Source of the DNA: an uncultured Roseibium sp.
Lineage (GTDB): Bacteria > Pseudomonadota > Alphaproteobacteria > Rhizobiales > Stappiaceae
DNA length: 40,000 nucleotides
Direction: 5' to 3'
Assembly (NCBI RefSeq): GCF_963675095.2
Contig: NZ_CAXXSJ010000060.1
Location: 6,903-46,902, forward strand
Shown here: positions 8,380 through 35,943 of the stretch, piece by piece
Layout: the number at the start of each line of letters is the position of its first letter
How positions within the stretch are numbered: the first letter of the stretch is position 1
Position numbers and translations under genes: made by a program
Notes under the pieces: model-generated
The model's input: only the letters and a program-made list of their open reading frames with translations
What the model was told of the DNA's origin: nothing
The model's database searches: none

Positions 8380-8979
8380 TCAGTCGTAGGTGTAGCCGAA
8401 GGACAGGCCGAACCGGTCCGCGGTCAACGGCCGATTGCCGGTCAGCGCCCGGCGCAGCCACAGGCGGCCGTGGATCTGGGTGTCGGTGAAATCGGCGTTG
8501 TCCGGAAGCCGGACACCATCGCACCAGAGCCCGCCCAGCCACTCTGCGCCGGAGAAATCCGCCTGCTTGCGTAAGCTCGCGCCTTCCAGCGAAAAGTTGC
8601 CATAGGCAACCACGCCTGAGAAATCCGCGTCGTCTTCGAAAACGGCGCCGTTGAAATTACCGATCCCGCGGAACTCGCATCCGGCAAAGGAAACCTTGCG
8701 GGAGAAGGTCACCTCTTCGAAGCGCGCGTCGTTGCGGAACGACGCGCCGGCGAAGGAAACCTCCCCGCCGAAGACCGATCCGCCGAACCAGGACAGGCCC
8801 TGGAACACCGCATCACGTGCGTCGATGCCGTCGGGAAACCGTGCGTTCCGGAAATCGACGCCTGCCAGTTCAAGACCGGCAAGGTCGAGCTCGCCCTCAC
8901 ACTCGATTCCCGAAAGATCGATGCGTTCACCATGATGCCACGGCGTCGATAGTTTTTCGCGGATTTCCCGGGCCAGCAT
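8380..8979 (-). CDS. Pentapeptide repeat protein
   Basis: About 30 consecutive A(D/N)LxX-type pentads (e.g. ADFSGVVAYGNFSLEGASLRKQADFSGAEW). Its start shares 1 nt with the flavodoxin stop (TGATG at 8977-8981). Confidence 0.85.
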   Translation of the reverse strand: MLAREIREKLSTPWHHGERIDLSGIECEGELDLAGLELAGVDFRNARFPDGIDARDAVFQGLSWFGGSVFGGEVSFAGASFRNDARFEEVTFSRKVSFAGCEFRGIGNFNGAVFEDDADFSGVVAYGNFSLEGASLRKQADFSGAEWLGGLWCDGVRLPDNADFTDTQIHGRLWLRRALTGNRPLTADRFGLSFGYTYD

Positions 8980-9446
8980 CAGGCTGCCTCTGAAGCCTGT
9001 TTTTCAGCGAGCGCAACCATTTCCTCTGCCCAGGGCAGAGCCAGATCGTCGGCCATGTCACTACCGGACGCGTCATGGGTCAGCCGATCGCCGAGTTGGG
9101 TCGCTCCGTGTTTGGCGAGCAGGTCGGCGATGTGCTTGCTGCCGTGGTTGAAGGTCTCGTCATATTCGGAATCGCCGAGACCGAAGACGGAGAAGGAGAC
9201 ACCGGAGAGATCCGCACTGGACTGCGCCATGGCTTCCGCGAAAGGCTTCGCCGAGGCCGGCAGTTCGCCGTCTCCATAGGTGGAGCAGACGACCAGGTAG
9301 AACCCGCCCGCCTCGAAGTCGTCCGGAGCGAAATCGGACAGGTTGACAGCTTCGGCCTCGTGGTCGCTTTCCAGGCCGGAGACGATGTCCTCAGCCAGCA
9401 TCTCGGCATTTCCGGTTTCGGTGCCGTAGAGAACAGTGATCTTCAT
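8979..9446 (-). CDS. Flavodoxin (short-chain, FMN-binding)
   Basis: MKITVLYGTETGNAE phosphate-binding loop and STYGDGELP motif. 155 aa; ATGA overlap with the upstream reductase gene. Confidence 0.85.
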   Translation of the reverse strand: MKITVLYGTETGNAEMLAEDIVSGLESDHEAEAVNLSDFAPDDFEAGGFYLVVCSTYGDGELPASAKPFAEAMAQSSADLSGVSFSVFGLGDSEYDETFNHGSKHIADLLAKHGATQLGDRLTHDASGSDMADDLALPWAEEMVALAEKQASEAA

Positions 9447-10699
9447 CCGTTGATCTCCTCAGATTTTTGCAGGGCCAGAGCCAGCATGTCCTGCCGGCAG
9501 GCGATCTTGCGGCGGGTTCTGTCCGCCGGCAGGTCGGCCGTTTCGGCCTCATCGATCCGCTTCCAGCCGGCGTAATCGACCAGATCTGTGCGTTCCGCCA
9601 TCAGGCTATCTCGCCCGCCTTTTCCGGCATCTGCGCCGGCGGCGTCAAGATCCGCCAATATACGGGTGGCAAGCGCCTGCGCGTCCGCACGGTTTTCCGG
9701 AATGGTCCCACGCGGGCCGCGCCGGAACCAGCCGGTCGCGTAGAGACCCGGAGCGAGCGCGCCGGCCGCCAAATCGTCTGCCGATGCAGCCAGTTCGTCC
9801 CGCCCCAGAGGGCCGGCTGCGGCAAACCCGACGGCGGTGATGAAGCTGTCGCAGGCGATCTCGGCCACATCACCACTTGCACTTTGGAACCGGACACCGG
9901 TCACCTTGCCGTCTTCGCCTGTGATTTCCGCCGGTGTCAAACCGAAGCGGAAGGTGAGCTGGCGCGGACCGGCTCCATGGCCGTCAACCGCAGCCAATGC
10001 GTCCAGCTTTTTCTGACCCTCGTCACTCTGGGCAGTCCCCATGTCCTCGACGCGGATTGTCACGCCGGAAAGCTTGGAGAGTTCCTTGATCATTTCCGGA
10101 TCGAATTTCGCGGCTTCGGCCGCCGAGCGTCCGACGAGATCGATGGTCTCGATGTCGTTGCCGGCAAGCCAGGCGCTCGGACCGGCACCGAAATCGGATC
10201 CCGCAAGTTCGTCAGGCGTCTTGCCCAGGATACGCAACAGGTCGATGGCGACATTGCCGTTGCCCATGATGACGACCTTCTTGCCGAGCGTGGGCAAGGG
10301 GTCGGCGTCTGGGTGTTCGTAAAGCGCACGAGTCAAGTCGCCAGCGCGGATCACGCCTTCTAGATCCTCGCCCGGTATGCCGAGCGACCGGTCGCCGGGA
10401 AGGCCGGCCGCCAGAACGACCACATCGTAACAGGCACGTAGGTCATCCAGGGACACATCTTCGCCGACGGTCAAGTTGCCGATGAAAGTGGCACCCATGC
10501 GCTCGAATACCCGCTCGAACTGGCGCGTGATCCCCTTGGTGCCCTGGTGATCGGCAGCAACGCCATAGCGCACCAGACCATAAGGCACCGGCAGGCGGTC
10601 GATCAGGTCGACCTTGAGCTCCGGATTGGCCTTGAGCAAAGCCTGCGCCAGGAAGCACCCGGACGGACCGGCCCCGATAATGGCGACGGATGCACTCAT
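9443..10699 (-). CDS. FAD-dependent NAD(P)H:ferredoxin/flavodoxin oxidoreductase, adrenodoxin-reductase/FprA type
   Basis: Two dinucleotide folds (AIIGAGPSGCFLAQAL and VVIMGNGNVAIDLLRIL) plus PVPYGLVRYGVAADH, typical of the AdR/FprA family. 418 aa. Confidence 0.75.
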   Translation of the reverse strand: MSASVAIIGAGPSGCFLAQALLKANPELKVDLIDRLPVPYGLVRYGVAADHQGTKGITRQFERVFERMGATFIGNLTVGEDVSLDDLRACYDVVVLAAGLPGDRSLGIPGEDLEGVIRAGDLTRALYEHPDADPLPTLGKKVVIMGNGNVAIDLLRILGKTPDELAGSDFGAGPSAWLAGNDIETIDLVGRSAAEAAKFDPEMIKELSKLSGVTIRVEDMGTAQSDEGQKKLDALAAVDGHGAGPRQLTFRFGLTPAEITGEDGKVTGVRFQSASGDVAEIACDSFITAVGFAAAGPLGRDELAASADDLAAGALAPGLYATGWFRRGPRGTIPENRADAQALATRILADLDAAGADAGKGGRDSLMAERTDLVDYAGWKRIDEAETADLPADRTRRKIACRQDMLALALQKSEEING

Positions 10700-21065: not shown

Positions 21066-21836
21066 CTAGATAGTCTTTTCTTCTAGTTTGAGCAGCTCGA
21101 AGAGCTGCGCGGCGTAGTTATTGACTTCCGGCAACTTGCGCCGCTGCAGTGGCCGTTCACGGTGTGGCAGATCGACCTTGATTTCCGCGATCACGCGTCC
21201 GGGACGCTCCGACAGGACCAGGATCCGGTCGGACATCAGGACGGCCTCGGCAAGGTCGTGGGTAATCAGAAGGGTGGTCTTCCGGCTTTCCGAAATCGTC
21301 TCCGCGAAGCTGTTCTGCAGCAGCATCTTGGTCTGCGCATCGAGAGCGGAAAACGGTTCGTCGAGCAGAATGATCTCGGGATCGATGGCAAGGGTGCGGG
21401 CCAGGGCCGCGCGCTGCCGCATCCCGCCGGACAACTGGTAGGGATAATGCCCTTCAAAGCCGTCCAGGTGGCAGTGCTTGAGTTCCTTCATGGCGATGGC
21501 ACGACGCTCGTCGCGCGCTACCCCACGGGACTCCAGGCCGAATTCGATGTTGTGCACGATGCTGCGCCAGGGAAGGAGCAGATCCTTCTGCAGCATGAAA
21601 CCGACATGCTGGTTCGGACCGGTCACCTTCTCGCCACTGACCAGGACATCGCCGACGGTCGGCTGATACAATCCGGCGGTCATGCTCAAGATGGTGCTCT
21701 TGCCGCAACCGGACGGACCGACGACAGAAACGAATTCACCCTCATCGACGCGGAAGCTGACGCTGTCGACAGCGGTCATCATGCCGCCGGTGCGGGACTC
21801 GAATTCCTTGCTGACGCCGCGAAATTCAAGCGCCAT
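21066..21836 (-). CDS. ABC transporter ATP-binding protein, NitT/TauT family
   Basis: Walker A GPSGCGKSTIL, signature LSGGMRQRAALA, Walker B ILLDEPFSALD. Confidence 0.9.
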   Translation of the reverse strand: MALEFRGVSKEFESRTGGMMTAVDSVSFRVDEGEFVSVVGPSGCGKSTILSMTAGLYQPTVGDVLVSGEKVTGPNQHVGFMLQKDLLLPWRSIVHNIEFGLESRGVARDERRAIAMKELKHCHLDGFEGHYPYQLSGGMRQRAALARTLAIDPEIILLDEPFSALDAQTKMLLQNSFAETISESRKTTLLITHDLAEAVLMSDRILVLSERPGRVIAEIKVDLPHRERPLQRRKLPEVNNYAAQLFELLKLEEKTI

Positions 21837-22128
21837 AACCGTTTTCCAGGTAAGCGCTGTCGAACTCCGCGTTGATGGCGGTGAGCTCTTCGGACAGAAG
21901 CGCCTCGGTCCAGTCGGTCTTGCCGGAGATCGGCGCGACGACCTTGCGGTCCGTCAGAGCAGTGGCAACAGCGGCGTAATCGGCGGCGCCAGCACCATAG
22001 ATTTCCATCAGCGCCTCGGCGAGTTTTTCCTCAACCTCGGTCAATTCCCGTCCCCGGGACTGGTGGGCTAGCGCCGGACGGCTGGTGTCGAACGCTTTTT
22101 GCGATAGGCGGTCTTTGAACAGATCCAT
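21826..22128 (-). CDS. Small hypothetical protein (100 aa), first gene of the supra-operon
   Basis: GAGGG RBS 4-5 nt upstream of the ATG. Balanced, acidic composition. 11-nt overlap with the ATPase gene. I recognised no family. Confidence 0.55.
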   Translation of the reverse strand: MDLFKDRLSQKAFDTSRPALAHQSRGRELTEVEEKLAEALMEIYGAGAADYAAVATALTDRKVVAPISGKTDWTEALLSEELTAINAEFDSAYLENGYGA

Positions 22129-22143
22129 GTGACCCTCTGATTT

Positions 22144-22170
22144 TGTTCAATTTTGAACACATTGATCAAT
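22144..22170. promoter_or_regulatory. Two adjacent perfect palindromes in the supra-operon leader: TGTTCAATTTTGAACA (22144-22159) and ATTGATCAAT (22161-22170)
   Basis: Both were read directly and checked as self-complementary. They lie 16-42 nt upstream of the first ATG (22128) in a locally AT-rich stretch. Confidence 0.5.
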
Positions 22171-22518
22171 TATGATGATTGCGCGGATGAAGGGGTCGAG
22201 TCAATGAAAAATTCACAAAGCCGGTTCGGAAGGTGCGCGGGAGGGAAATGCCGGTCGGGAAATGCTTGCTCCTGCTGGCCGGAAAACAATCTGCATTACA
22301 ATGAATAAAGCGGACACGATGGTCAGAGTTCCGCCTTGGTGGTCGTTAAGTCGGACCGGGTGATTTGGCACGGAAATCGGATGGCGCAGCGTTCCCGCGC
22401 CGGGGCAAAATCGTTCCCATAAAAGAAAACAGTCAAATGGCGGCAGATATGATTGGCCACTCCCGGGGATTCACGACATCCCCCGACAGAACAACAAACC
22501 TGCATCCGGGTGCGTGCC

Positions 22519-24717
22519 CTAGACTTTCCCCTTCCACCGGGCGATCAGGCTGGGCAACAGCAACAGGTCACCGAGGAGGGCTGTCAGGAGGGTTGCGATG
22601 AGCATGCCGCCAAAGAGCCTGATGGTGTGGAATTCGCTGAACAGCGTGACGAGCAATCCGCAACTGATCAGCACGGTCGTGATGATCATCGCCTGTCCGG
22701 TCTCGCTCATGGCCGCAGCAAGCGCACCGCGGGTGTCCGGCCACCGCCCCCTTTCCAGCGTGTAGCGGTTGATGAAATGAATGGAGTCGTCGACAGCGAT
22801 GCCGAAGGCGATGGTCAGCGACAGCAAGGCTGCGGGTGTCAGCTCGCTGGCGTTCAGAACATGCAGGGCGGCAACGGCGACCGCGATGGGAAGCAGATTG
22901 GGCAGAAGCAGCAGAACGATGAAGGACGGCGCGCGATAATAACCGGCAATCAGCAATACCGTGATCAGGCACGCGCCGCCGAGACCAAGCGAATTGCGCC
23001 GAACAAGCTCCAAGGTGTCATATCGCATAATCATCGGCTGACCGAAGATGTGCGCGGACGAGCCGGCCCGAACTGCCTCAACCAGCCGGTCCTGCGCCTC
23101 AAGGGTATCCTTGTCGAACATGGGTTCGGGCATCAGGGCGACGACACGCGCGCGTTTTCCGTCGCCGGTCAGAAACAGCGCCTTGGCATCCGACGGCCAG
23201 TTCGCGATTTCCTCAGGCGACGGCATCCGGTCGGTCCGCCCCAGCCACCGCCCCAGCGAAACCAGCGACAGCACCGTGTTGCCCGGCGCTTCCTTTTCGA
23301 TCAGATCGTTCAACTGCACAAGGCGTTCCCAGTCGGAAGACGCGGCAAAGCCCTCACCGGTTTCATCTTCCGCATCGAGCTCGAACCAGAGCTGGTAGAA
23401 ACCGCCGAATTCCTTGGTGATGACATCGTTGGCGTAAATCAAGGCACTATCGGCCGGCAGGTTGTCGTCCATCTTGAACCAGGGCTTGATGGTAACCACC
23501 CCGGCAAGGGCGACCGCAGCAAGGACAAGGCTACCGGCACGGATCGTTCCGGCATTATCCAGCATCCAGGACACCCGGTCCTTTGAGAGTGCGAACAGGA
23601 CCCGGCGCCGGGCACCTGATTTTTTGGGCCACAGAACAGGCGCGAGCAGGCAGAAAACGGCGATGACCACCGCATAGCTCACCAGAACGGAAACCGCTCC
23701 CGCCACGGCCATCTCGCGTGTCTGTACATTCTCGCTGATCATGATCGTCAAAAAGGCGATCGACGTGGTCACGCCCGTCAGCGCACAGGCGGGGCCAACC
23801 GTCACGAGCGCCTTGCGGGCACGTGCGCGCGCCGTGTCGCTGTTGCCGTTGGCGCGCATGTTCAGGATAAGGTGCACAGTGTCCGCCACCCCTAGCACCA
23901 TCACCAGCAAGGGGATCGCGTTATTCAGCACCGTGATCTTCAGTCCAAGCGCGACAAAGACCACCAGCGACGTATAGGCGGCGGCAATGGATGGCACCGC
24001 CGCCAGGAAGACGAGACGCAGATTACCGAAAACGATGAAGGAAACCGCAAGGACGACCGCCACCCCCGCGACATTGAAGATCCACAAATCCTGGCGCAGC
24101 GCCCGGACCATTTCCGGGCCTACGGTTTCCTCACCGGTAAAGGTGACGCGGAACCGATCACCGGCTGTCTCCGCCGTTATCTGTTTCAGTTCGGTCAGCA
24201 GATCAGCGGAAACGCCTTTGCCGGTCTCGATCAGGAACAGCGCCGATGTCCTGTCGGCGGAGACGGGCAGCTTCGGCTGAAGCTTCAGCGCGTCATAGGC
24301 GGCAAGCTGTGCCTCGACCGTTTCCACATCCAGCTCCAACGGCAGCACCGGTTCTTCCGGATGGTCCGGATGCCAAGGGGGAAACCGGGCCGATGCAAGG
24401 GAAAAGACCGCATCGACCCCGCCCGCCAGGGAATAGCCGAACTGCAGGTCGCGCAGAAGCTCATAGCCTGCCGCGTCCATCGGTTCAGGCGACTGAACCA
24501 GTGCCAGGAGCGGAGACGCCGATCCGCCGTTGGTGTCGGCGAAATCGAAATAGGCCTTCGCATGACCGCTGGAGGAAGCAAAGCTCGCGGTGATATCGTT
24601 CTCAAACCGGATATTGAGGACGGGGAAGACGGAAAGTCCCGCCAGAATCATCAGCACAATCGAAACAATGACGGGCCGCGACAGCGCCGCGTGGCCGGGC
24701 CACAACAGAAAATACAA
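22519..24717 (-). CDS. RND-superfamily exporter (MMPL/SSD, COG1033 HpnN-like)
   Basis: 732 aa with two 6-TM bundles and two large loops. It carries duplicated MMPL-type motifs (GVADTVHLILN and GIAVDDSIHFINRY). TTG start preceded by GGAGAGGAGG. Confidence 0.8.
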   Translation of the reverse strand: MYFLLWPGHAALSRPVIVSIVLMILAGLSVFPVLNIRFENDITASFASSSGHAKAYFDFADTNGGSASPLLALVQSPEPMDAAGYELLRDLQFGYSLAGGVDAVFSLASARFPPWHPDHPEEPVLPLELDVETVEAQLAAYDALKLQPKLPVSADRTSALFLIETGKGVSADLLTELKQITAETAGDRFRVTFTGEETVGPEMVRALRQDLWIFNVAGVAVVLAVSFIVFGNLRLVFLAAVPSIAAAYTSLVVFVALGLKITVLNNAIPLLVMVLGVADTVHLILNMRANGNSDTARARARKALVTVGPACALTGVTTSIAFLTIMISENVQTREMAVAGAVSVLVSYAVVIAVFCLLAPVLWPKKSGARRRVLFALSKDRVSWMLDNAGTIRAGSLVLAAVALAGVVTIKPWFKMDDNLPADSALIYANDVITKEFGGFYQLWFELDAEDETGEGFAASSDWERLVQLNDLIEKEAPGNTVLSLVSLGRWLGRTDRMPSPEEIANWPSDAKALFLTGDGKRARVVALMPEPMFDKDTLEAQDRLVEAVRAGSSAHIFGQPMIMRYDTLELVRRNSLGLGGACLITVLLIAGYYRAPSFIVLLLLPNLLPIAVAVAALHVLNASELTPAALLSLTIAFGIAVDDSIHFINRYTLERGRWPDTRGALAAAMSETGQAMIITTVLISCGLLVTLFSEFHTIRLFGGMLIATLLTALLGDLLLLPSLIARWKGKV

Positions 24718-24963
24718 TCCGCCTCCTCTCCCGGCTGCCCGCCGGTACGCGCGGAAAGGGTCGTGATGACGATCGCTTTCCTATCCCCACGCCAGAATAT
24801 CCGATGCAAGACCAAAAGCCATTCGGGACCCGGCTTCGCCGCGGCCCGGTCTTTTCAGTATCGGCGAACCTCTGCTAGCATTCGCATCCGGACCCGGTAA
24901 ACTGGCTTGCGGGAACAAAATCCCGGATATATTCGTCCGGAGAGGCACTTGGGGACGCGCAAC

Positions 24964-25476
24964 GTGACCAGAAAATCCTACTTCGCGGCTCCGGCCCTTG
25001 CCTTTGCAATTGCCTGCGGACCGGCTGCAGCCGATGATTTCCTGTCCAAAGCGGAAGGAACCTGGCGGGGCAAGGGATGGGCGAAGCAGAGCCTGGACGC
25101 GCCGAAGGAAGCCGTCTTGTGCCGCATTACGAACACCGTGGACGCCGGTAGCAACCGGCTGAAAACCTCGGGACGCTGCGCGGTCGCCAGCCAGACATTT
25201 ACCGTGGAAGGACAGATTACCCTGGCGCCCGGGAGCGGCCGAATTACCGGTACCTGGCACATCCCGCAAGGCTCCGGTAACGCCGCCATTTCCGGCCAAA
25301 GACAGGGAAACCGCATTGTTTTCACTTTTCAGGCGCCCGAAAAAAGCACGAAACAGGACCTGTTGCACAAGAGCCTGTGGACACTCGGTGCATCTGCGCT
25401 GACGATTACCGCCAGCGTCAGACGACCGAATGATGGAAAGTACATCTCCTTGAGTTCCTTGAATTTTTCAAAATAG
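24964..25476 (+). CDS. Small secreted beta-rich protein, unknown function
   Basis: Signal peptide RKSYFAAPALAFAIACGPAAA with a GTG start at 24964; the ORF-track start at 24907 is also possible. The mature part begins FLSKAEGTWRGKGW, which weakly recalls lipocalin/nitrobindin-like barrels. The last ~12 codons lie in a low-GC tract. Confidence 0.5.
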   Translation: MTRKSYFAAPALAFAIACGPAAADDFLSKAEGTWRGKGWAKQSLDAPKEAVLCRITNTVDAGSNRLKTSGRCAVASQTFTVEGQITLAPGSGRITGTWHIPQGSGNAAISGQRQGNRIVFTFQAPEKSTKQDLLHKSLWTLGASALTITASVRRPNDGKYISLSSLNFSK

Positions 25477-25597
25477 ACATCGAACTTAAAACCATCCATC
25501 AGACTTATATGAAAATCGTCCCACCTTGTGCGGCAGAATAGTTCGATATCGGACAAATATTTTCTGCCACCGCCGACGTAAAGGACAACCAGTTTTT
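25440..25597 (-). pseudogene. Low-GC gene relic (fragment of a foreign ORF)
   Basis: The minus-strand frame reads KLVVLYVGGGRKYLSDIELFCRTRWDDFHISLMDGFKFDVYFEKFKELKEMY. It has no ATG and begins just after a stop codon. Downstream it runs antisense into the 24964-25476 gene. Hand-counted GC for 25441-25560 is 44/120. Confidence 0.4.
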
Positions 25598-25677
25598 ACT
25601 GGACTACACAGTATGTCTTTGCCCTAATAGTATTTGATTTTATCGGTCATTTTCAGGTGTTGGGCGGGCAGCGACAC

Positions 25678-27135
25678 ATGAACAGTTCAGAAGACATTGT
25701 CGAGGGGGCGCCCGTCTCCTCCCGCACTGTCATTGTCGGCGCCGGAATAGCCGGCCTCCTTGCTGCTCGCGTTCTAGCAGACGACTTCGCGGAAGTGGTT
25801 TTGATCGAACGCGATCGGCTGCAGGAACGAACCGGGCCCCGCCCCGGTGTCCCCCAGTCCGCCCACGGGCATCTTCTTCTCGCCGCCGGTTTCAGAACGA
25901 TCACCGAACTGTTTCCCGATCTTGACCGGGAACTGGTGGAAGCCGGTGCCGTCCCGGGCGACATATGCGCCGACGGCATCGTCAACGTGCGTGGCAGACG
26001 CCTGCCGAGGTTTGCCTCCGGCCTCAAGACCCTCCTTATGAGCCGGACCCTTCTGGAAGGCCATATCCGGCAGCGGGTCACGGAAATCCCCAATGTCGCC
26101 ATCCGCACCGGCTGCCGGTCCACCGGGTTTCTATTCGACCAAACAAGCTGCCGCGTGACCGGCGTCCGTCTTCGGACGACGGACGGCACGGAGGAAGACC
26201 TGGCCGCGGATCTCGTCATCGACGCCAGCGGCCGCAGCGCCGCCGCTTCGGCCTGGCTTGGCGAAAACGGCTTTGGCCGGGTTCCCGAGACTGTCGTCGA
26301 TGCCCATGTGGGCTATGCATCGCGCCGGTTTTCGCTTCCTGCAAAGCAGGAGATGCCGTCGACGGGAGACTGGAAAGTCGCCGCTTGCGCCTGGCTGCCT
26401 CCGGACAACCGGCGCGCGGGCGGCCTCTACCGGGAGGAAAACGGCGTCTGGGTCGCAAGCCTGGTCGGAGCGTTGGAGGCCATTCCCTCCACCGACGAAA
26501 AGGCTTTTCTGGACCACGCGCGGCGGCTGGAAGACCCGGCACTTCATGAAGCCCTGCACCACGGCATGCCCCTGTCGAAGATCGCAGGCTACCGGGTGGC
26601 CGGCAGCCGTCGTCGCCGTTTCAGTCCGCTGGCCCGACGCCTCAAGCGGCTGGTGGTCATCGGGGATGCCCTGTGCACCGTCAATCCTTTCTATGGTCAG
26701 GGGATGACGATCGCCGCCCTTCAGGCACGCGCCCTGCAAGGGCGGTTCCGCCGGGGTGCTGCCCTGGGCGGCACTCCCCTCGACCGGGCCGCCCGTCATG
26801 CCCAGCGCGCTTGTGAGACGGTAACGGCGGTGCCGTGGCTGTTTTCCACCTCCGAGGATCTGCGCCACGGAGCGGCGGTGCAAGGCCGGCGCACTTTTGT
26901 GCACCGGGTGATCAATTGGTACGTCAACCGGGCCCTTGCCGTTGGCGGCCCACGCACGATCCGCGCGCTCTACAACACCATGAGCCTGGTCGACCCGCTT
27001 GCCCTCGCCCGCCCCGGCACCGTGTTCGACATTCTGCTCATGCCGTTTTTCAGACGGGACCGATACAATTTCAGAAAGAACAGCCATCAGCGGCCCTCGG
27101 CCCTGGAGGAGCGCTGCGGAGAGGATAGTATATGA
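25678..27135 (+). CDS. FAD-dependent monooxygenase/epoxidase-like oxidoreductase
   Basis: GxGxxG (VIVGAGIAGLLAARVLA), VIDASGRSAA, and GDALCTVNPFYGQGMT, which resembles the squalene-epoxidase-type GDAxNxRHPxTGxGMT. ATG at 25678 preferred; a GTG at 25657 is possible. Confidence 0.75.
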   Translation: MNSSEDIVEGAPVSSRTVIVGAGIAGLLAARVLADDFAEVVLIERDRLQERTGPRPGVPQSAHGHLLLAAGFRTITELFPDLDRELVEAGAVPGDICADGIVNVRGRRLPRFASGLKTLLMSRTLLEGHIRQRVTEIPNVAIRTGCRSTGFLFDQTSCRVTGVRLRTTDGTEEDLAADLVIDASGRSAAASAWLGENGFGRVPETVVDAHVGYASRRFSLPAKQEMPSTGDWKVAACAWLPPDNRRAGGLYREENGVWVASLVGALEAIPSTDEKAFLDHARRLEDPALHEALHHGMPLSKIAGYRVAGSRRRRFSPLARRLKRLVVIGDALCTVNPFYGQGMTIAALQARALQGRFRRGAALGGTPLDRAARHAQRACETVTAVPWLFSTSEDLRHGAAVQGRRTFVHRVINWYVNRALAVGGPRTIRALYNTMSLVDPLALARPGTVFDILLMPFFRRDRYNFRKNSHQRPSALEERCGEDSI

Positions 27136-28013
27136 TGGATGCGAAAACCGAATTCAGCGGCGAGAAGGCGGATGTCCGCGAAGCGGTCGAGCGCTACCTG
27201 GAAGAGCAGTTCGCCGCCTATGCCGAGACCGAAGTCCGCCGGGCGGCTGAATATACCGCCCTTGGAGGCGGCCACCGTTGGCGGCCGATCGTGGCGATTG
27301 CGGCCGGGCGGATCTTTCACACCGATGCATTGGAGATCGCCCTGCCGGGGGCATGCGGCGCCGAACTTGCCCACGCCGCCTCGCTGATCCTGGACGATCT
27401 GCCGTCCATGGACGACGCCGCCCTCCGCCGCGGCAAGCCGTGTGTCCATCTGGTCTTCCCCAAATGGGCGGTGGACATGGCCCCGGTCTTCCTGGTGACC
27501 ATGGCCTATGCCATCAGCCTCAATCACGACCGCTCGTCCGCAGACCGGCGCGTTCAGGCGGCTCTTGCCCTCAGTTCCGCCGGCACTGCCATGATCGAGG
27601 GCCAGTGCCTCGATCTTGCCAGCAGCCTGGCAGACGGCACGGAAGCGCAGATGCTCGATTGCTACCGGTTGAAGAGTGCCGCTCTTTATGGCGCTGCCGC
27701 GCGTGGCGGTGCACTCCTGTGCGGCGCCGGTCCTGAAGATGCGGACCGGATGGAACGCGCAGGCTTTTATCTCGGCCTCGCCTACCAATTCATGGACGAT
27801 GTCGCCGACGTCACCGCCACGGTCGAACAAGTCGGCAAACAGGTTCATCAGGATGACGGCAAATTCACCGCAACGGCCTGGCTGGGCGTCGAGGGAGCCG
27901 CCGAAATGAGCCGGTCCTACCAGACGAAGGCCCTGGCCGAGCTTGCGCCCTACGGACCCGAAGCCGAATGGCTACGCAGTATCGTCTGCGAGGCGAGCTG
28001 GGCCACCCACTGA
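27132..28013 (+). CDS. Polyprenyl diphosphate synthase, CrtE-like geranylgeranyl diphosphate synthase
   Basis: First Asp-rich motif ASLILDDLPSMDDAALRRGKP, with small residues ahead of it as in GGPP synthases. Second motif AYQFMDDVADV, followed by GKQVHQDDGKFT. ATGA overlap with the FAD gene. Confidence 0.85.
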   Translation: MMDAKTEFSGEKADVREAVERYLEEQFAAYAETEVRRAAEYTALGGGHRWRPIVAIAAGRIFHTDALEIALPGACGAELAHAASLILDDLPSMDDAALRRGKPCVHLVFPKWAVDMAPVFLVTMAYAISLNHDRSSADRRVQAALALSSAGTAMIEGQCLDLASSLADGTEAQMLDCYRLKSAALYGAAARGGALLCGAGPEDADRMERAGFYLGLAYQFMDDVADVTATVEQVGKQVHQDDGKFTATAWLGVEGAAEMSRSYQTKALAELAPYGPEAEWLRSIVCEASWATH

Positions 28014-28021
28014 ACGCCCGG

Positions 28022-29287
28022 CTATGCCGACACCGCCGCCTGTCGCCGCACCCCTGAAAAGGGCATCCGGGTCGCACCGCGCAACAGCAGCGACTTGCGC
28101 CATGACACCCTGCCCGCTTCGATGTCGAAGCGGGAATAGACATCCAGAAAGGCCTTGATCCCCACCTCCAGCACCATGCGGGTCAGCGCCGCCCCCAGGC
28201 AGAAGTGAATACCATAGCCGAAAGTCAGCGGCTGCGGATCCGGCCGGTCCAGCCGCAAGCGATCCGGCTCGTCGTAACGCCGCGGATCCCGGTTGGCGGC
28301 GACAAGCTGGATCATGATGTTCGATCCGGCCGGGATGCGCTTGCCGGCGAGTTCCATGTCGTGAGGCGTGTACCGCGGCGCAAATTTCACCGACGTGTCG
28401 AAACGGCAGAATTCCTCAACCGCATTCGGCCAGATTTTCGGATTTTCACGTAACAGAGCCTGCTGGTCGGGAAACCGGGAAAGCGCCAGGATCGAATTGC
28501 CGACCAGTCCGCCGGTCGTCTGCGACCCTGCCCCCAGCATCATCAAGGCCATGGTGATCGTTTCCTTGCGGCTGAACTCCTCACCCTCCGCCCGCACCAT
28601 GGCGGTGATGAAATCGTCCTTCGGCTCTTGCTTGCGCTGTTCGGCCAGAGCGTCGAAATAGCGATAGAGTTCGTCGATGGTGGCGCTGACCGTTTCCGGA
28701 TCGAACCGCAATAGAGGGTCGAGCAGCTTGACGATCACGTCGGTCATGCGCTGCGACCAGTCCCAGTCCTCCTCTGGTATGCCGATCAGGCTCGCAACGG
28801 CCGCATTCGCCAGCGGCCTGGTAAAGTCCCGCGTCAGATCGCCGTCGGGCTTGTCCCCAAGCCTCTCCAGAAGCCGATACGCCGTGGCCTCGATACGCCC
28901 TTCGAGCCGGGTGATGCTGCGGGAGGTGAACTCCCTGTGCACCATCCGGCGCAAGCGGGTGTGATCCGGGGGGTCGCTCACCAGGATAAGGTTCCGGAAC
29001 GTCCATTGGGCCAACGGCGAAAGTTTCGAATAAGGCCGGACGTTCAACAGCAGGCCGATCGGCTCTCCCACCAGCAGATCGTCGCGCGAAAGCACTTCCA
29101 GGGCTTCGTCATAGCCGGTCACGACCCAGTGCCGGTAAAGCGTGCGATAGGTAACCGCTCCTTCCCGGTGCATGGCGGCGACCGCCGAGGTGGGGTCGCG
29201 GGAATACGACTCCCCCAGAGGATTTCCCCAAGGATCGAAGGCGAACACGAGACCGGCAAGTTTCGGACGGGCCGCAACAGCCTGCAT
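28022..29287 (-). CDS. Cytochrome P450
   Basis: Haem loop FGYGIHFCLGAALTR, ExxR (EEFCRFD) and I-helix GAGSQTTGG. The start is ambiguous between 29287 (MQAV, 421 aa), 29335 and a TTG at 29383; none has a convincing RBS. Confidence 0.85.
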   Translation of the reverse strand: MQAVAARPKLAGLVFAFDPWGNPLGESYSRDPTSAVAAMHREGAVTYRTLYRHWVVTGYDEALEVLSRDDLLVGEPIGLLLNVRPYSKLSPLAQWTFRNLILVSDPPDHTRLRRMVHREFTSRSITRLEGRIEATAYRLLERLGDKPDGDLTRDFTRPLANAAVASLIGIPEEDWDWSQRMTDVIVKLLDPLLRFDPETVSATIDELYRYFDALAEQRKQEPKDDFITAMVRAEGEEFSRKETITMALMMLGAGSQTTGGLVGNSILALSRFPDQQALLRENPKIWPNAVEEFCRFDTSVKFAPRYTPHDMELAGKRIPAGSNIMIQLVAANRDPRRYDEPDRLRLDRPDPQPLTFGYGIHFCLGAALTRMVLEVGIKAFLDVYSRFDIEAGRVSWRKSLLLRGATRMPFSGVRRQAAVSA

Positions 29288-29697
29288 CACCGGATAGAAG
29301 ATCTGCTCGAAATGCACGCTTGGCCCTACCCTCATCAAACAGGCCGAATGGTAGGAAGGAAATTGTTCGGACACAAGGCACAAAGCCGCAGGAAGCCGGC
29401 TGATTTTCAGCGTTTTACAGCAATGACGCCGGTCAAATTCGCCCTATCCTTCAGGGATGCACGGCGGATCTCCCTCTCCTGCTACTCCGCAGGCCTACCT
29501 CCGCTCCGGTTTAACAGGAACCGCGCAAGAGCATTGCTTGAGACCATCCGGACAGGCAACGGCTCAAGGCTTTTGTTTCGTCTGCTCATAGAACCGGGCA
29601 GTCCTCGGTCCATTTTGCACACCAGATGAGCAGACCACATCCATTCGAAGTCCAGGCAATGAGCACTTTGCTCATAATGACTCCAATTGAATTTTAT

Positions 29698-29709
29698 TCC
29701 TATATAGGA
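29698..29709. promoter_or_regulatory. Palindrome TCCTATATAGGA (candidate GntR/HutC operator, distal site)
   Basis: Perfect 12-bp palindrome in a low-GC intergenic region. The 14-mer TTCCTATATAGGAC matches the proximal site at 12 of 14 positions. Confidence 0.45.
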
Positions 29710-29750
29710 CTTGTAGCCTTTTTATTGAATCTGTAGCGTCTATAGCAACG

Positions 29751-29764
29751 GTCCTTTATAGGAC
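29751..29764. promoter_or_regulatory. Inverted repeat GTCCT-TTAT-AGGAC (candidate GntR/HutC operator, proximal site)
   Basis: 5-bp perfect arms, ending 27 nt upstream of the GTG start of the GntR gene. Centre-to-centre distance to the distal site is 54 bp. Confidence 0.45.
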
Positions 29765-29791
29765 TTAATCAAGCGCGACAGGTGCAGACCC

Positions 29792-30562
29792 GTGAAAGTT
29801 TCGAAACTTGGTTCGGCAAAAGCGAAACACCGCCAGATCTCTGAGGAGATCCTGAGCGCGATTGAGGAAGGGCGCTGGCTTCCGGGAGACCGTCTTCCGG
29901 CCGAAGACCAGCTCGCCGCCGAAATGGATGCCAGCCTCGGCACCGTCCAGCGGGCCCTGCGCAGCCTGGTGCAGATGGGCGTGGTCGAACGCCATCACGG
30001 GCGCGGGACCTTCGTTACCGGCGCCCAGGCCCAGGAAGGCCAGTTGCGGCACTTCCGTTTCATGGCGGAGGGTGGCAAGCAGCTTCTGCCGGTCTACTTC
30101 AAGATCATCGGCGTCGAGCTGACGAGCGAAAGCGGACCGTGGAGCAATTTCTTCGGAACCCCCGAAGAGGAATATGTCCACATACACCGCCTCGTGAACG
30201 TGAATGACGAGTTCGACGTCTTCAGCGAGATCTACCTGCCCGCCAGCCGGTTTGCCGAAATCGCTGGGATGAGCGAAGCGACGCTCAACGGTGTGTCCTT
30301 TCGCGACTTCCTGGCAGAACGCTTCAACGCGCCGACGATCAACACGCACCAGACCATGGTGTGTCAGCCGCTGCCGCCACGGATCACGCGCGTCCTGAAC
30401 GTGCCCCATGGCCAATACGGCATCGTCTGGACCGTCGGCGGCCTCAGCTACCGGGACGCACCGATCACCTGGCAACGGATCTTCGTACCGCCGAGCGACC
30501 GGGTGATCGAGATCGTTCCCATCTCCTCGCCGGAGCAGACCAACCTGCGCGAGATGTTTTGA
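29792..30562 (+). CDS. GntR family transcriptional regulator (HutC subfamily, UTRA effector domain)
   Basis: N-terminal wHTH (LPGDRLPAEDQLAAEMDASLGTVQRALRSLVQMGVVERHHGRGTFV) plus a ~170-aa C-terminal domain of UTRA size. GTG start. Confidence 0.85.
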   Translation: MKVSKLGSAKAKHRQISEEILSAIEEGRWLPGDRLPAEDQLAAEMDASLGTVQRALRSLVQMGVVERHHGRGTFVTGAQAQEGQLRHFRFMAEGGKQLLPVYFKIIGVELTSESGPWSNFFGTPEEEYVHIHRLVNVNDEFDVFSEIYLPASRFAEIAGMSEATLNGVSFRDFLAERFNAPTINTHQTMVCQPLPPRITRVLNVPHGQYGIVWTVGGLSYRDAPITWQRIFVPPSDRVIEIVPISSPEQTNLREMF

Positions 30563-33615: not shown

Positions 33616-35943
33616 ATGTCCGCCAGCGTACCCGTCACCGATCGTCAAGACCGCCCCTGGGAAGCGATGAACAGCGGCGTGATCCGCGACCCCATCGATC
33701 CGTCCCTGTTGGGCCACGCGGAAATCACGCCGGCGGGCGCCTTCGAGGCCGGGTCCTACGCATCGTTCACCCTGGTCTATACGGCGGGCACCTTCGGCAT
33801 TGACGATTCCGGCAGCCTCCGGGTCTGCTTCCGGTTTGCATCCGACCAGGGCAATCCGCAGTTCGACGATCCGTCGGCCGCCAACTACTGCACCGTGGAA
33901 GCCTCCAACGGGGCCGTGCTGCAGGTCCGCTGGGATCCGAAGGGAAACGTCCGCCCGTGGGATCGCACGCTCTGGATCAAGGTGGTCAAGGGGTTCCTGC
34001 AGGTGGGCGACACGATCACCATCCGCTTCGGTGTCACCGACCATGGCGGGCCCGGCATGCGGCTGCAGACCTTCTGCGAAGACACGTTCGAGTTCCGGGT
34101 TCTGGTGGATCCGATCGCCACGTTCAATTTCCAGACCCTGCCGGTCCAGCCGATGATCTCGATCGTACCAGGGCCGGCTGCCAAATATGCCGCCGTGATG
34201 CCGACATTGCGCCGGCCGGGCGAGACCTTCGCGCTCAAGATCAAGGGCGAAGACAAATGGGGCAATCCGACAGACCGCTGTTCGGGAAAGCTGTTCCTTA
34301 TGGCGGAAGGCAGCATCGACGGCCTGCCGGAAAGCGTGGAGATGACCGAAGGCGTCTTCGGAGTCACCGTCCCGGGGCTTTCCGTGAGCGCGCCGGGACA
34401 GGCCGCCGTGGTCGTGACGGACGAAGCGGGCATCATTGTCGCCCGCACCAATCCGCTCATCGTTGAAGACCGGAAGCTGGTGCATTTCTGGGGCGACATG
34501 CACGGCCAGTCGGAAGAGACCATCGGCACCAACAGCGCTTTCGGCTATTTCGCCTTTGCCCGCGACAAGGCCTGGGTCGATGCCTGTGGCCATCAGGGCA
34601 ATGACTTCCAGATCACAGACGCATTCTGGGCCGAGCTCAACCGCATCACGGCAGAGTTCGACAAGCCGGACGAATTCGTGGCCCTGCCCGGCTACGAGTG
34701 GTCGGGCAACACCGCGCTTGGCGGCGACCGCAACGTTTTCTACCCGACCGACGACCGCCTGATCCGACGGTCCTCGCATGCGCTGATCGAGGATCAGACG
34801 ACGGCGGAGACGGATTGCTTCACCGCCCGGGAACTGTTCCAGGCCTTCGCGGACAACGATGAAACCGACGTGGTCTGCTATGCCCACTGCGGCGGCCGCT
34901 ATGCGGATATCGGCTACGCCCACGACGGCCGTTTCGAGAAGTCGGTCGAGGTTCACTCTTCCTGGGGCAGCTTCGAATGGCTGCTGCACGATGCCATCAA
35001 GTTCGGCTACCGGGTCGGCGTGGTGTGCAATTCCGACGGCCACAAGGGACGCCCGGGCGCGAGTTATCCGGGCGCCGGCAAGTTCGGCGCGATCGGCGGA
35101 CTGACCTGTTTCAACGTGCCGGAACTCAACCGCGACACCCTGCTCGACTGCATGCGCAAGCGCCGCCATTACGGTACCACCGGCGGCGATGGCGGCCGCA
35201 TGGCGATCACCGTCGAGGCGCGTTTCACCCACGACGTCAGTCTCTATCACGACGATCCGAAGTTGTTTTCAGACAGCAAACCGGTCACGACGCGCACTGC
35301 CATGATGGGCGACATCGTTCATCTGCCGGAAGGCGAGATGGAGCTGGAGGTTTCGGTCGACAGCAATTCGCCGATCCTGAAGGTGGATATCTTCAACGGT
35401 CTCGACCTGGTGGAGACCATCCGGCCCTATGGCGAAGACGACCTGGGTGCGCGCCTGCGGCTGCACTGGGAAGGCGCGGAATACCGCGGCCGCTTCCGCG
35501 AAGTCATCTGGGACGGCTCGGCCAAGGTTTCCGACAACGGCGTCACGGCGACCACGCCGATCAACTTCTTCAATCCGGACAAGACGCTCGATCATGCCGG
35601 CCCGACGGACATCTCCTGGAAGGCGCTGACCACCGGGAATTTCGGCGGAGCGGATGTTTACCTGGAAGACGCGCAAGCCGGGACGCTTTCGGTAAAAACG
35701 CCGCTGGTCAGTTTCGAGGTTCCGATTTCGGAGATCGGTCTGGACGAACAGGTCTTCGATGCCTCGGGAGACCTGCCGCGCTTCTTCAAGGTCAGCCGGC
35801 TGCCAGCGGTCAATCCACACCGGTCGCTGCGCTTTACCAGATCTGTTGCCCTAACGTCCGACGGCGACAATCCGGTCTATATTCGCGTCGAGCTGGAGGA
35901 TGGCACCCGGGCCTGGACGAGCCCGATCTATCTCTACCGCTGA
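33616..35943 (+). CDS. Large cytoplasmic DUF3604-like putative metal-dependent hydrolase with a ~290-aa N-terminal beta-rich extension
   Basis: 775 aa with no signal peptide. The C-terminal ~480 aa carry a motif series: FWGDMHGQSEE, GYEWSGNTALGGDRNVFY, HCGGRYAD, VEVHSSWGSFEWLL, NSDGHKGRPG. From memory this matches the DUF3604/PHP-like order. RBS AAGAAGG. The antisense 578-aa ORF is rejected. Confidence 0.6.
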   Translation: MSASVPVTDRQDRPWEAMNSGVIRDPIDPSLLGHAEITPAGAFEAGSYASFTLVYTAGTFGIDDSGSLRVCFRFASDQGNPQFDDPSAANYCTVEASNGAVLQVRWDPKGNVRPWDRTLWIKVVKGFLQVGDTITIRFGVTDHGGPGMRLQTFCEDTFEFRVLVDPIATFNFQTLPVQPMISIVPGPAAKYAAVMPTLRRPGETFALKIKGEDKWGNPTDRCSGKLFLMAEGSIDGLPESVEMTEGVFGVTVPGLSVSAPGQAAVVVTDEAGIIVARTNPLIVEDRKLVHFWGDMHGQSEETIGTNSAFGYFAFARDKAWVDACGHQGNDFQITDAFWAELNRITAEFDKPDEFVALPGYEWSGNTALGGDRNVFYPTDDRLIRRSSHALIEDQTTAETDCFTARELFQAFADNDETDVVCYAHCGGRYADIGYAHDGRFEKSVEVHSSWGSFEWLLHDAIKFGYRVGVVCNSDGHKGRPGASYPGAGKFGAIGGLTCFNVPELNRDTLLDCMRKRRHYGTTGGDGGRMAITVEARFTHDVSLYHDDPKLFSDSKPVTTRTAMMGDIVHLPEGEMELEVSVDSNSPILKVDIFNGLDLVETIRPYGEDDLGARLRLHWEGAEYRGRFREVIWDGSAKVSDNGVTATTPINFFNPDKTLDHAGPTDISWKALTTGNFGGADVYLEDAQAGTLSVKTPLVSFEVPISEIGLDEQVFDASGDLPRFFKVSRLPAVNPHRSLRFTRSVALTSDGDNPVYIRVELEDGTRAWTSPIYLYR

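Follow-up and report, generated by a model that had tools for sequence, protein, structure and literature searches.

A five-gene Roseibium cassette proposed to make and export an oxidized C20 isoprenoid lipid

The 40,000-nucleotide stretch of Roseibium DNA analysed here (the window) carries five adjoining genes which we read, with a probability of roughly one half, as a dedicated cassette for making an oxidized C20 isoprenoid lipid and exporting it from the cytoplasmic membrane. The complete cassette has so far been seen in Roseibium only. An RND exporter gene is followed by genes for a small secreted protein, an FAD monooxygenase and a polyprenyl synthase, and then by a cytochrome P450 gene:

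22519-24717, minus strand: RND/MMPL transporter with sterol-sensing domain, 732 aa
24964-25476, plus strand: small secreted protein, 170 aa (database start GTG at 24964)
25585-25650, plus strand: conserved non-coding blocks upstream of the FAD gene, from sequence comparison among loci
25678-27135, plus strand: FAD monooxygenase, 485 aa (database start ATG at 25678)
27132-28013, plus strand: polyprenyl diphosphate synthase, 293 aa
28022-29317, minus strand: cytochrome P450, 431 aa from GTG at 29317 (the ORF reaches 29383)

All five ORFs of the original prediction are present, at or near the predicted positions and in the predicted families. The ATGA stop/start overlap that joins the FAD gene to the synthase gene (27132-27135) and the 8-nt convergent gap between the synthase and P450 genes (28013 to 28022) were likewise borne out. 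Besides its four intergenic regions, the block holds no unassigned coding space.

The five genes occur in identical order and orientation in the window and in the related loci L001, L170 and L003 (Roseibium sp. MMSF_3544), with protein identities of 52-96%. A fifth locus, L002, has the FAD-synthase pair without the P450, RND or barrel genes, and this pair forms the conserved minimal core. The FAD reading frame runs into that of the synthase, sharing 4 nt with it in the window, L001 and L170 and 8 nt in L003. Translational coupling of the two genes persists down to 54% identity. Since the five-gene order recurs in L001, L170 and L003 and all four partner genes are absent from 78 of the 80 control loci (L006-L085, obtained with their broad-family FAD homologues in a genome-collection scan), the arrangement exceeds chance. 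The original prediction had itself named lack of co-conservation as evidence against a module, and the recurrence of the block in these three loci upholds its claim. The single other co-occurrence with a synthase among the broad-family FAD loci, in L061, was judged incidental. Full cassettes were found in Roseibium only, and there was none among the 80 best loci of each of two collection scans. The neighbours of the block in L003 differ from those in the window on both flanks, while L001 and L170 share the left flank of the window and have a different right flank. These synteny breakpoints, the sole pointer in this respect, suggest that the block acts as a unit. The flanking genes in the window encode aromatic-catabolism-like and transport functions.

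By its motifs, the synthase looks like a short-chain trans-polyprenyl diphosphate synthase of the CrtE-like type II geranylgeranyl diphosphate (GGPP) synthase kind. It matches Pfam polyprenyl_synt (8e-39), has the motifs AASLILDDLPSMDD and DDVAD and is conserved better than any other gene of the block (96, 75 and 74% across the related loci). Ala/Ser precede DDLPSMDD at positions -5/-4, where the FPP synthase 7lbj has Tyr at -5 and the solved GGPP synthase used in the comparison has Met at -5; the chain-length residues are thus GGPP synthase-type, in line with the CrtE-like assignment first made. A member of its 90% cluster was named 'geranylgeranyl diphosphate synthase type II' by JGI. The original prediction would have been weakened by a housekeeping synthase, but the NCBIfam scores stay below the IspA and CrtE equivalog cut-offs (FPPsyn 159 bits, cut-off 275; CrtE 147 bits, cut-off 460).

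The FAD protein is, judging from its sequence, a group A flavin-dependent monooxygenase whose relatives include the polyether olefin epoxidases MonCI and Lsd18 (LasC). In a phmmer search against the PDB it matched MonCI at 2e-48 and Lsd18/LasC at 5e-38, with the next match at 9e-4, and the alignment to MonCI is collinear with 36% identity over 377 aligned residues. It belongs to Pfam FAD_binding_3 and has GxGxxG at ORF residue 28 and GDALCTVNPFYGQGMT at ORF residue 336. MonCI bears the same GD motif (GDSLTAFNPIYGHGMS), and GD(A/S)LxxxNPxYGxGM is common to MonCI, Lsd18 and the Roseibium enzyme. The GDAxxxxNPxxGQGM motif that had led to the label squalene-epoxidase-like is therefore not diagnostic. 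As squalene epoxidase was neither matched in Pfam nor found among the PDB matches at E<0.01, and the closest characterized relatives are MonCI and Lsd18, we dropped this label. The top-scoring relatives are thousands of uncharacterized proteins with 35-42% identity, and the broad family is functionally heterogeneous; one uncharacterized relative belongs to the C-1027 enediyne cluster, and family membership therefore leaves the substrate class unfixed. MonCI and its homologues epoxidize several trisubstituted olefins on one linear chain, and a heterologous host expressing monCI epoxidized the terpene linalool about 20-fold more (PMC10560226). The trisubstituted olefins of a flexible linear chain, on which MonCI and Lsd18 act, are also the predicted target of the Roseibium enzyme. 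However, MonCI and Lsd18 are encoded in type I PKS clusters and act on ACP-tethered polyketides, with the epoxide hydrolases MonB/Lsd19 alongside (PMC10560226), whereas the Roseibium block lacks a PKS, an ACP and an epoxide hydrolase, and its FAD gene is coupled to a polyprenyl synthase. No report linking the MonCI/Lsd18 epoxidase family to isoprenoid synthesis was found in the searchable literature.

The P450 (Pfam p450, 2e-24) is CYP107-like by sequence, with the heme loop FGYGIHFCLG and the motifs AGSQT and EFCR. Its best PDB relatives are a P450 hydroxylase, vitamin D3 hydroxylase, PksS, EryF, TamI and PikC (E 1e-58 to 1e-50), and these nearest relatives work on large hydrophobic substrates. 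It was found in four of the five loci that bear the FAD-synthase pair, and no ferredoxin or reductase accompanies it.

The exporter matches Pfam MMPL (6e-22), Sterol-sensing (2e-10) and Patched (3e-9) and appears MMPL/HAE3-like, with a TIGR00921 HAE3 score of 100 bits, under the cut-off of 352. Hydropathy predicts two TM bundles, the first preceded by TM1 and a periplasmic loop of ~165 aa and the second by another loop. The original prediction called it HpnN-like, which holds at the superfamily level but not for HpnN itself, as the HpnN models give 47.6 bits (cut-off 752) and 19.3 bits (cut-off 1100). With HpnN and other RND/MMPL lipid exporters that contain a sterol-sensing domain it shares this domain, small periplasmic loops and adjoining isoprenoid genes, and from this likeness it would be expected to carry a hydrophobic lipid outward. 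It differs from HpnN in its shorter length, its scores far under the HpnN cut-offs, the lack of hopanoid genes nearby and its recurrent secreted beta-barrel partner, which, to our knowledge, has not been described for HpnN. Orthologues have 92 and 57% identity in L001 and L003 and 34-36% in L166, L167 and L171.

This partner, the small secreted protein, has a signal peptide (...AAA|DD), is identical to the database protein P0121 and belongs to a family of 307 cluster representatives with invariant C53/C72 and GxWxGxGW. AlphaFold2 (pLDDT 90.9, pTM 0.80) models it as a calycin/nitrobindin-like barrel of 10 antiparallel beta-strands, accompanied by a single short helix. Foldseek matched the model to nitrobindin (TM 0.68-0.75) and to the spirocyclases OssO/OlmO (TM 0.63-0.71), which enclose a hydrophobic ligand in a 10-stranded antiparallel barrel of ~150 residues, as is proposed for the Roseibium protein. 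Sequence identity to these proteins is only 10-14%; the Roseibium barrel is secreted and has a conserved Cys pair, and its genetic linkage is to a transporter, not to cytoplasmic biosynthetic enzymes. A heme-binding nitrobindin identity was rejected because the family lacks a conserved His, and DUF1579 was weakly matched by 18 of 40 family members. In the unrelated loci L166, L167 and L171 the barrel gene lies directly downstream of the orthologous RND gene, which has a sterol-sensing domain, and overlaps its 3' end. The lipid genes beside the pair vary: in L167 they encode a type III PKS and an ICMT methyltransferase, in L166 a flavoprotein. RND pairing was present in three of the six distant barrel homologues examined; the other three, in Rhizobiaceae, have no RND neighbour. 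Since the barrel family sits directly after the orthologous RND gene in three unrelated loci, RND and barrel would form a reusable lipid-export pair. The small signal-peptide protein of the original prediction is thus present and secreted, but not an incidental neighbour, and appears from its gene context to be the conserved, putatively lipid-binding periplasmic partner of the RND protein. Exporters and carriers are paired in aryl-polyene/flexirubin clusters, which combine a LolA-like protein with an exporter of the MMPL type, and Lol and Mla include lipid chaperones. These pairs follow the same logic of an inner-membrane exporter and a small soluble periplasmic lipid-binding protein that accompany various clusters for lipid biosynthesis; the known carriers have a LolA or MlaC fold, whereas the Roseibium carrier has a nitrobindin-like calycin barrel.

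In the reading that we prefer, the CrtE-like synthase would provide a private pool of geranylgeranyl diphosphate. The FAD enzyme, made from the same mRNA, would epoxidize at least one trisubstituted double bond of the geranylgeranyl chain with NAD(P)H and O2, either on the diphosphate or once this has been removed. The CYP107-like P450 could then add a further hydroxyl or oxidize a terminal carbon, with redox partners encoded elsewhere. Drawn out of the inner membrane by the RND transporter, the lipid would be handed to the secreted barrel, which would ferry it through the periplasm to the outer membrane or the outside. An oxidized acyclic or non-canonically cyclized C20 isoprenoid is a plausible product. 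We regard the cassette as a variation on known systems of terpenoid tailoring and lipid export. The phenalinolactone-type core (PlaT1-PlaT4; brasilicardin, tiancilactone, atolypene, longestin) also clusters a GGPP synthase with a flavin monooxygenase and has a P450 nearby (PMC11317874), and the FAD enzyme can be likened to PlaT1 by described role, as PlaT1 is a bacterial flavin epoxidase that works on a geranylgeranyl chain in phenalinolactone biosynthesis (PMC11317874). Those clusters are actinomycete, whereas the Roseibium block is alphaproteobacterial and has an exporter pair. Their four core genes include a UbiA prenyltransferase and an oxidosqualene-cyclase-like type II cyclase (PMC11317874), neither of which is present in the Roseibium block and related loci. 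No annotated ORF of the 40-kb window contains a terpene synthase, SHC, UbiA prenyltransferase or phytoene/squalene synthase domain, which agrees with the absence of cyclase, prenyltransferase and phytoene/squalene synthase reported before.

The phenalinolactone epoxidase requires prior prenyl transfer and has no detectable action on GGPP (PMC11317874), which, in a block without a prenyltransferase, counts against direct epoxidation of GGPP. It is rather unlikely, but conceivable, that GGPP instead serves a prenyltransferase encoded elsewhere, with the FAD enzyme and P450 oxidizing the prenylated acceptor and the RND-barrel pair exporting the meroterpenoid. In the phenalinolactone family UbiA prenyl transfer precedes epoxidation and hosts without plaT3 gave no detectable diterpenoids (PMC11317874); moreover, the block has no diphosphate-removing enzyme. 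Yet neither a UbiA nor an ABBA prenyltransferase was found in the window or the flanks of L001, L170, L003 and L002, and dependence on a prenyltransferase encoded elsewhere would be unusual, given how tightly the block is otherwise conserved as a unit.

The repeated epoxidation of one linear chain by MonCI-family enzymes, together with the absence of a conventional cyclase, also fits an unlikely scheme in which the FAD enzyme epoxidizes several double bonds and the polyepoxide collapses, spontaneously or aided by the barrel or the P450, to a cyclic-ether (THF-type) or other non-canonically cyclized terpenoid. The resemblance of the barrel fold to the polyketide spirocyclases OssO/OlmO points in this direction, as does a SnoaL_2 gene two genes from the RND gene in L003; we take SnoaL_2 to be the fold of MonB/Lsd19-type epoxide hydrolases. 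However, the SnoaL_2 gene is missing in the window, L001 and L170, and the window has no MonB-type epoxide hydrolase. The barrel is secreted whereas the oxidations are cytoplasmic, and the pairing of its family with RND genes beside unrelated chemistry favours the carrier role.

The genes might, quite improbably, be unrelated neighbours: a general FPP/GGPP supplier (e.g. for quinone or bacteriochlorophyll), an FAD enzyme and a P450 acting on non-isoprenoids, and a general efflux pump. The functions encoded in the flanks and the heterogeneity of the broad FAD family would suit this. Against it stand the coupling kept to 54% identity, the gene order kept despite the different flanks of L003, the synthase scores under both housekeeping cut-offs, the finding of full cassettes in Roseibium only, with none among the 80 best loci of each scan, and a transporter that has a sterol-sensing domain and, in place of an AcrA/TolC-type adaptor, a barrel partner of its own. 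Very improbable is a geranylgeranyl-reductase-type FAD protein that saturates the chain and so yields a phytyl-like lipid for P450 hydroxylation, as its top NCBIfam match, the geranylgeranyl reductase superfamily TIGR02032 (E 5e-12), scores only 46 bits (cut-off 158.8) and spans only the FAD-binding N-terminal residues 25-202, while the PDB matches at E<0.01 include no geranylgeranyl reductase and MonCI matches over 377 residues.

The low-GC tracts that bracket the biosynthetic genes had been taken as a sign of acquisition as a cassette, but this did not hold up: GC is 0.43 at 25477-25677 and 0.51 at 29318-29791, both inside the ordinary intergenic range of the window (0.42-0.66, mean 0.52). 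The non-coding blocks upstream of the FAD gene, which have no Rfam match, include a palindrome, CCAGTTTTTACTGG, at 25589-25602 and a second conserved block, TTTGATTTTATCGG, at 25633-25646. They are retained in L001, L170 and the divergent L003, and are probably the promoter/operator of the FAD-synthase operon.

ORF calling with Pfam and NCBIfam annotation recovered all five ORFs of the block, each in the family named for it in the original prediction:

22519-24717, minus strand: RND protein with MMPL and sterol-sensing domains (ORF and family match)
24964-25476, plus strand: small protein (ORF)
25678-27135, plus strand: FAD-binding monooxygenase (ORF and family match)
27132-28013, plus strand: polyprenyl synthase (ORF and family match)
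28022-29317, minus strand: cytochrome P450 (ORF and family match)

The FAD gene stop and the synthase gene start share an ATGA overlap, the stops of the convergent synthase and P450 genes are 8 nt apart, and the quoted motifs were found in the sequence. Pfam annotation covered every substantial ORF of the 40-kb window. The left flank encodes an ABC uptake system, a Rieske/VanA oxygenase, SDRs, hydrolases, a ThDP enzyme and an aldehyde dehydrogenase; on the right of the block are genes for a GntR regulator, a TRAP transporter, DUF3604 and a branched-chain ABC system. None of these ORFs encodes a terpene synthase, squalene-hopene cyclase, phytoene/squalene synthase or UbiA prenyltransferase, which upholds the absence of such enzymes noted in the original prediction. 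What had been observed, an orphan oxidative isoprenoid module without a cyclase, is confirmed, and its interpretation is supported in part. In the right flank, a 775-aa protein (33616-35943) encoded after the TRAP transporter genes could be assigned to no family beyond a weak and partial DUF3604 match (E 3e-6, about 77 residues).

Related loci were found via the contigs encoding the closest FAD homologues. The five genes have identical order and orientation in the window and in two further Roseibium assemblies, L001 and L170. Identities of L001 to the window are 92% (RND), 89% (small protein), 84% (FAD), 96% (synthase) and 92% (P450), and the FAD enzyme of L170 is 87% identical. The full block is also present, in a far more divergent form (57, 52, 54, 74 and 69% in the same order), in L003 from Roseibium sp. 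MMSF_3544, where RND, FAD, synthase and P450 correspond to RefSeq WP_305988810, -812, -813 and -814. The left flank of the window is common to L001 and L170 and the right flanks differ, while the neighbours in L003 are unlike those of the window on both sides. Just beside its RND gene, L003 (826-1938) has genes for a 120-aa SnoaL_2 protein and for an alpha/beta hydrolase; the window, L001 and L170 lack the SnoaL_2 gene. Polyether epoxide hydrolases share a SnoaL/NTF2-like fold. A fifth locus, L002, contains only the FAD-synthase pair (FAD 56% and synthase 75% identity). The overlap between the two genes is conserved: it is 4 nt long in the window and likewise in L001 and L170, and 8 nt long in L003.

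The matches listed by a scan of the genome collection with the FAD alignment were all broad-family members with 33-42% identity, and 80 of these loci, from cyanobacteria, Chloroflexota, actinomycetes and others, were used as a negative control. None of the four partner genes was present within the fetched flanks (up to 8 kb) in 78 of the 80. In a Bradyrhizobium locus (L061) the FAD and synthase genes are 4 kb apart with unrelated genes between them; this sole other synthase co-occurrence among the controls was considered incidental. A metagenome scan with the synthase gave no further cassettes among the matches listed, and the synthase relatives at 50-66% identity were on short contigs beside transposases or unrelated genes. 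One of them (L087, 38-3931; 50% identity) lies between DDE_3 and Mu-type transposase genes. The next clade of FAD homologues (41-47% identity; L004, L168 and L169) occurs without a synthase, beside DUF2339 and MFS genes or another flavoprotein. In L004 (1-5657) and L168 (215-5756) the FAD gene (43-47%) is located between a divergent gene for a large DUF2339 membrane protein and a downstream MFS gene, a conserved trio that differs from the cassette of the window. The 737-aa neighbour in L004 was suspected to be an RND protein or a cyclase and was found to be DUF2339. From the pair-only locus, the next-clade FAD genes without a synthase and the 80-locus control it follows that the core of the cassette is FAD plus synthase, and that the P450, RND and small genes were added in Roseibium. 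Among the matches listed, the full cassette is so far confined to Roseibium, and no description of this cluster was found in the searchable literature.

The polyprenyl synthase has DDLPSMD as first Asp-rich motif, which is the form with a two-residue insertion, and DDVAD as second motif (surrounding stretch AASLILDDLPSMDD). Together with non-aromatic residues at -5 and -4 (Ala and Ser), it shows all the features that mark type II GGPP synthases (DDxxxxD with insertion, DDxxD, non-aromatic -4/-5). In the printed alignments position -5 is Met in solved GGPP synthases and Tyr in the FPP synthase 7lbj (HAYSLVHDD), and this comparison of the -5/-4 residues supports a predicted product of at least C20. 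The synthase scored 147.3 bits with the NCBIfam CrtE equivalog (cut-off 460) and 158.8 bits with the FPP-synthase subfamily (cut-off 275). Since both scores are below cut-off, it is under these models a distinct subfamily, neither photosynthetic CrtE nor housekeeping IspA. It is also the most conserved gene of the block. Because of its motifs, the scores below cut-off and this conservation, we argue that the synthase is probably not the housekeeping enzyme but a dedicated paralogue.

A PDB sequence search with the FAD enzyme gave strong matches only to MonCI (E 2e-48) and Lsd18/LasC (5e-38); the next match was at 9e-4. MonCI and the FAD enzyme align collinearly over 377 residues (36% identity), with GDSLTAFNPIYGHGMS of MonCI opposite GDALCTVNPFYGQGMT of the FAD enzyme. 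The group A flavoprotein motifs GxGxxG and GD are present and aligned with the MonCI/Lsd18 family, to which the enzyme belongs by sequence. The motif that had been called squalene-epoxidase-like is a general group A flavoprotein motif, and MonCI has the same one. Squalene epoxidase itself was rejected, as no SE domain was among the Pfam hits (E<=0.001) and no squalene epoxidase among the PDB sequence hits (E<=0.01). MonCI and its homologues are epoxidases that act on several trisubstituted olefins within one linear polyene, and epoxidation of linalool, a terpene, rose when monCI was expressed (PMC10560226). The 40-kb window and the related loci contain no type I PKS, ACP or MonB/Lsd19-type epoxide hydrolases. 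By score, the nearest relatives of the FAD enzyme are thousands of uncharacterised proteins. A homologue with 36% identity, annotated as 'NAD(P)-binding protein', is encoded on plasmid SGLP1 of S. globisporus C-1027 (L175, 8917-10272), within the C-1027 enediyne cluster, with sugar genes around it and an epoxide hydrolase about 7 kb away. With such relatives the activity can only be inferred, and a predicted olefin epoxidase is the best-supported inference. MonCI-type enzymes in terpenoid pathways were not described in the searchable literature.

The P450 has canonical motifs throughout: the heme loop FGYGIHFCLG with the Cys ligand, EFCR as ExxR, and AGSQT in the I-helix. Its closest solved relatives in the PDB are CYP107-type hydroxylases of macrolides and vitamin D3. 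The block itself encodes no redox partner for the P450. A flavodoxin gene that overlaps a Pyr_redox_2 reductase gene (8979-10699) is located 18 kb from the P450 gene in a different operon, and these two could be candidate redox partners.

The RND protein contains MMPL and sterol-sensing domains above the Pfam cut-offs, and its hydropathy layout fits a 12-TM-type protein with two periplasmic loops. It does not reach the cut-off of the HAE3 subfamily (100.6 vs 351.9). The original prediction called it HpnN-like; assignment to HpnN itself does not hold, with scores far below the cut-offs of both TIGR03480 (47.6 vs 751.85) and NF052374 (19.3 vs 1100), and neither shc nor hpn genes occur in the window.

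The small protein has a predicted signal peptide (AAA|DD) and two invariant cysteines, and matched no Pfam family above threshold. An exhaustive HMMER search gave a family of 307 related cluster representatives, mostly about 165 aa long; DUF1579 was weakly matched by 18 of 40 family members. An AlphaFold2 model built from a 40-sequence alignment predicts one helix and ten antiparallel strands (pLDDT 90.9), and in Foldseek this model matched nitrobindin (3wjf, 2a13; TM 0.68-0.75) and the polyketide spirocyclases OssO/OlmO (TM 0.63-0.71). In the 40-member alignment Gly and the two Cys are the invariant residues, and no His is found among the invariant or near-invariant columns. The barrel fold thus matches heme-binding nitrobindin, but the protein is not one, because the proximal heme-ligating His is not conserved.

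In three loci (L166, L167 and L171) a homologue with 28-35% identity to the small protein is encoded directly after, and overlapping, the gene for a 720-737-aa RND protein that is 34-36% identical to that of the window. The genes beside these pairs differ between loci. L167 (4288-8489) has one co-directional run of genes for a type III polyketide synthase, an ICMT/PEMT-type methyltransferase, the orthologous RND protein and the barrel, which resembles a phenolic-lipid cluster with the same pair for export. In L166 (4141-8504) a gene for a 549-aa FAD_binding_2 flavoprotein comes before the pair, and in L171 (146-3603) one for a 243-aa protein without Pfam family. Three more distant homologues on Rhizobiaceae replicons (27-28% identity) have no RND neighbour, which rules out a universal RND-barrel pairing and makes it a frequent one. 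We read the RND and barrel proteins as a putative exporter with a periplasmic lipid carrier that may be attached to different lipid pathways. No RND-barrel (RND-calycin) pair was described in the searchable literature.

We propose, with a probability of about 0.5, that the synthase would make a private GGPP pool, that the MonCI-type FAD enzyme would epoxidise the geranylgeranyl chain, that the P450 would oxidise the epoxidised chain further and that the RND-barrel pair would export the product. The cassette is a variation on known kinds, namely clusters for terpenoid tailoring in bacteria and lipid exporters that have a periplasmic carrier. If the proposed route is true, polyether-type flavin epoxidases would be shown working in isoprenoid metabolism, and GGPP synthase plus epoxidase would be a minimal two-gene unit for oxidised acyclic diterpenoid lipids. 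The RND transporter and the nitrobindin-like barrel would be a portable lipid-export pair (for an isoprenoid here, with a type III PKS elsewhere), and a so far unnamed family of proteins, with about 300 sequence clusters, would thereby gain a function. Both the epoxidase and the export-pair ideas are directly testable by heterologous expression and lipidomics. Roseibium is a genus with known symbionts of corals, sponges and algae.

Of known systems, the phenalinolactone-type core (PlaT1-4) comes closest; its GGPP synthase and flavin epoxidase work on a geranylgeranyl chain (PMC11317874). As in the cassette, a polyprenyl synthase and a flavin monooxygenase are encoded in one cluster; in the cassette they are translationally coupled. 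Members of the phenalinolactone-type family need both a UbiA prenyltransferase and a type II cyclase (PMC11317874), whereas the annotated ORFs of the window and the called genes of L001, L002, L003 and L170 encode no UbiA domain and no oxidosqualene-cyclase-like type II cyclase (no SQHop_cyclase/prenyltrans-type domain). The cassette is therefore not a member of this family. Hosts of that system without the prenyltransferase gave no detectable diterpenoids (PMC11317874), and this keeps alive the rival explanation of a prenylated acceptor made elsewhere.

A second rival is that a polyepoxide collapses into cyclic ethers. In its fullest form, the MonCI-type enzyme would poly-epoxidise the geranylgeranyl chain, the polyepoxide would collapse into a cyclic-ether terpenoid with no canonical cyclase involved, giving a bacterial terpenoid polyether, and the secreted OlmO-like barrel would chaperone the product or finish ring closures in the periplasm. 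We consider this improbable; if true, bacteria would have their first genetically defined route to terpenoid polyethers, and the polyether-epoxidase family would for the first time be seen in use outside polyketide pathways. The FAD protein could instead act as a reductase, as its best NCBIfam match is the geranylgeranyl-reductase superfamily TIGR02032, but this match is weak (46.1 bits vs a cut-off of 158.8) and covers only residues 25-202, the N-terminal FAD-binding part, and geranylgeranyl reductase was rejected as primary reading. That the genes are merely neighbours without a shared pathway is a last rival; their co-conserved five-gene order in L001, L170 and L003 indicates that they form a module.

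The two low-GC tracts originally taken as brackets of an acquired cassette are the intergenic regions 25477-25677 (GC 0.43) and 29318-29791 (0.51). In the window, which has a GC content of about 62%, the eleven intergenic regions of at least 90 nt range from 0.42 to 0.66, so that both tracts are ordinary and drop out as evidence of acquisition. The cassette genes have a GC of 0.58-0.66 and a GC3 of 0.67-0.78, within the range of the window except for the slightly low GC3 of the small gene (0.67). The composition thus shows no trace of recent acquisition, for which the synteny breakpoints at the block edges are the only sign. No regulator is conserved with the block. Beside the cassette, a gene for a 100-aa HTH_62 protein (recombinase-like helix-turn-helix; 21826-22128) overlaps the start of an ABC ATPase gene. 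It is conserved in L001 and L170 and missing from L003, and is therefore probably not the regulator of the cassette. An Rfam scan of 21500-30500 gave no matches, and the counts of promoter and terminator scans were no higher than the shuffled-control level. Upstream of the FAD gene, a palindrome CCAGTTTTTACTGG (25589-25602) and a block TTTGATTTTATCGG (25633-25646) are kept in L001, L170 and the divergent L003, and these are a candidate operator/promoter.
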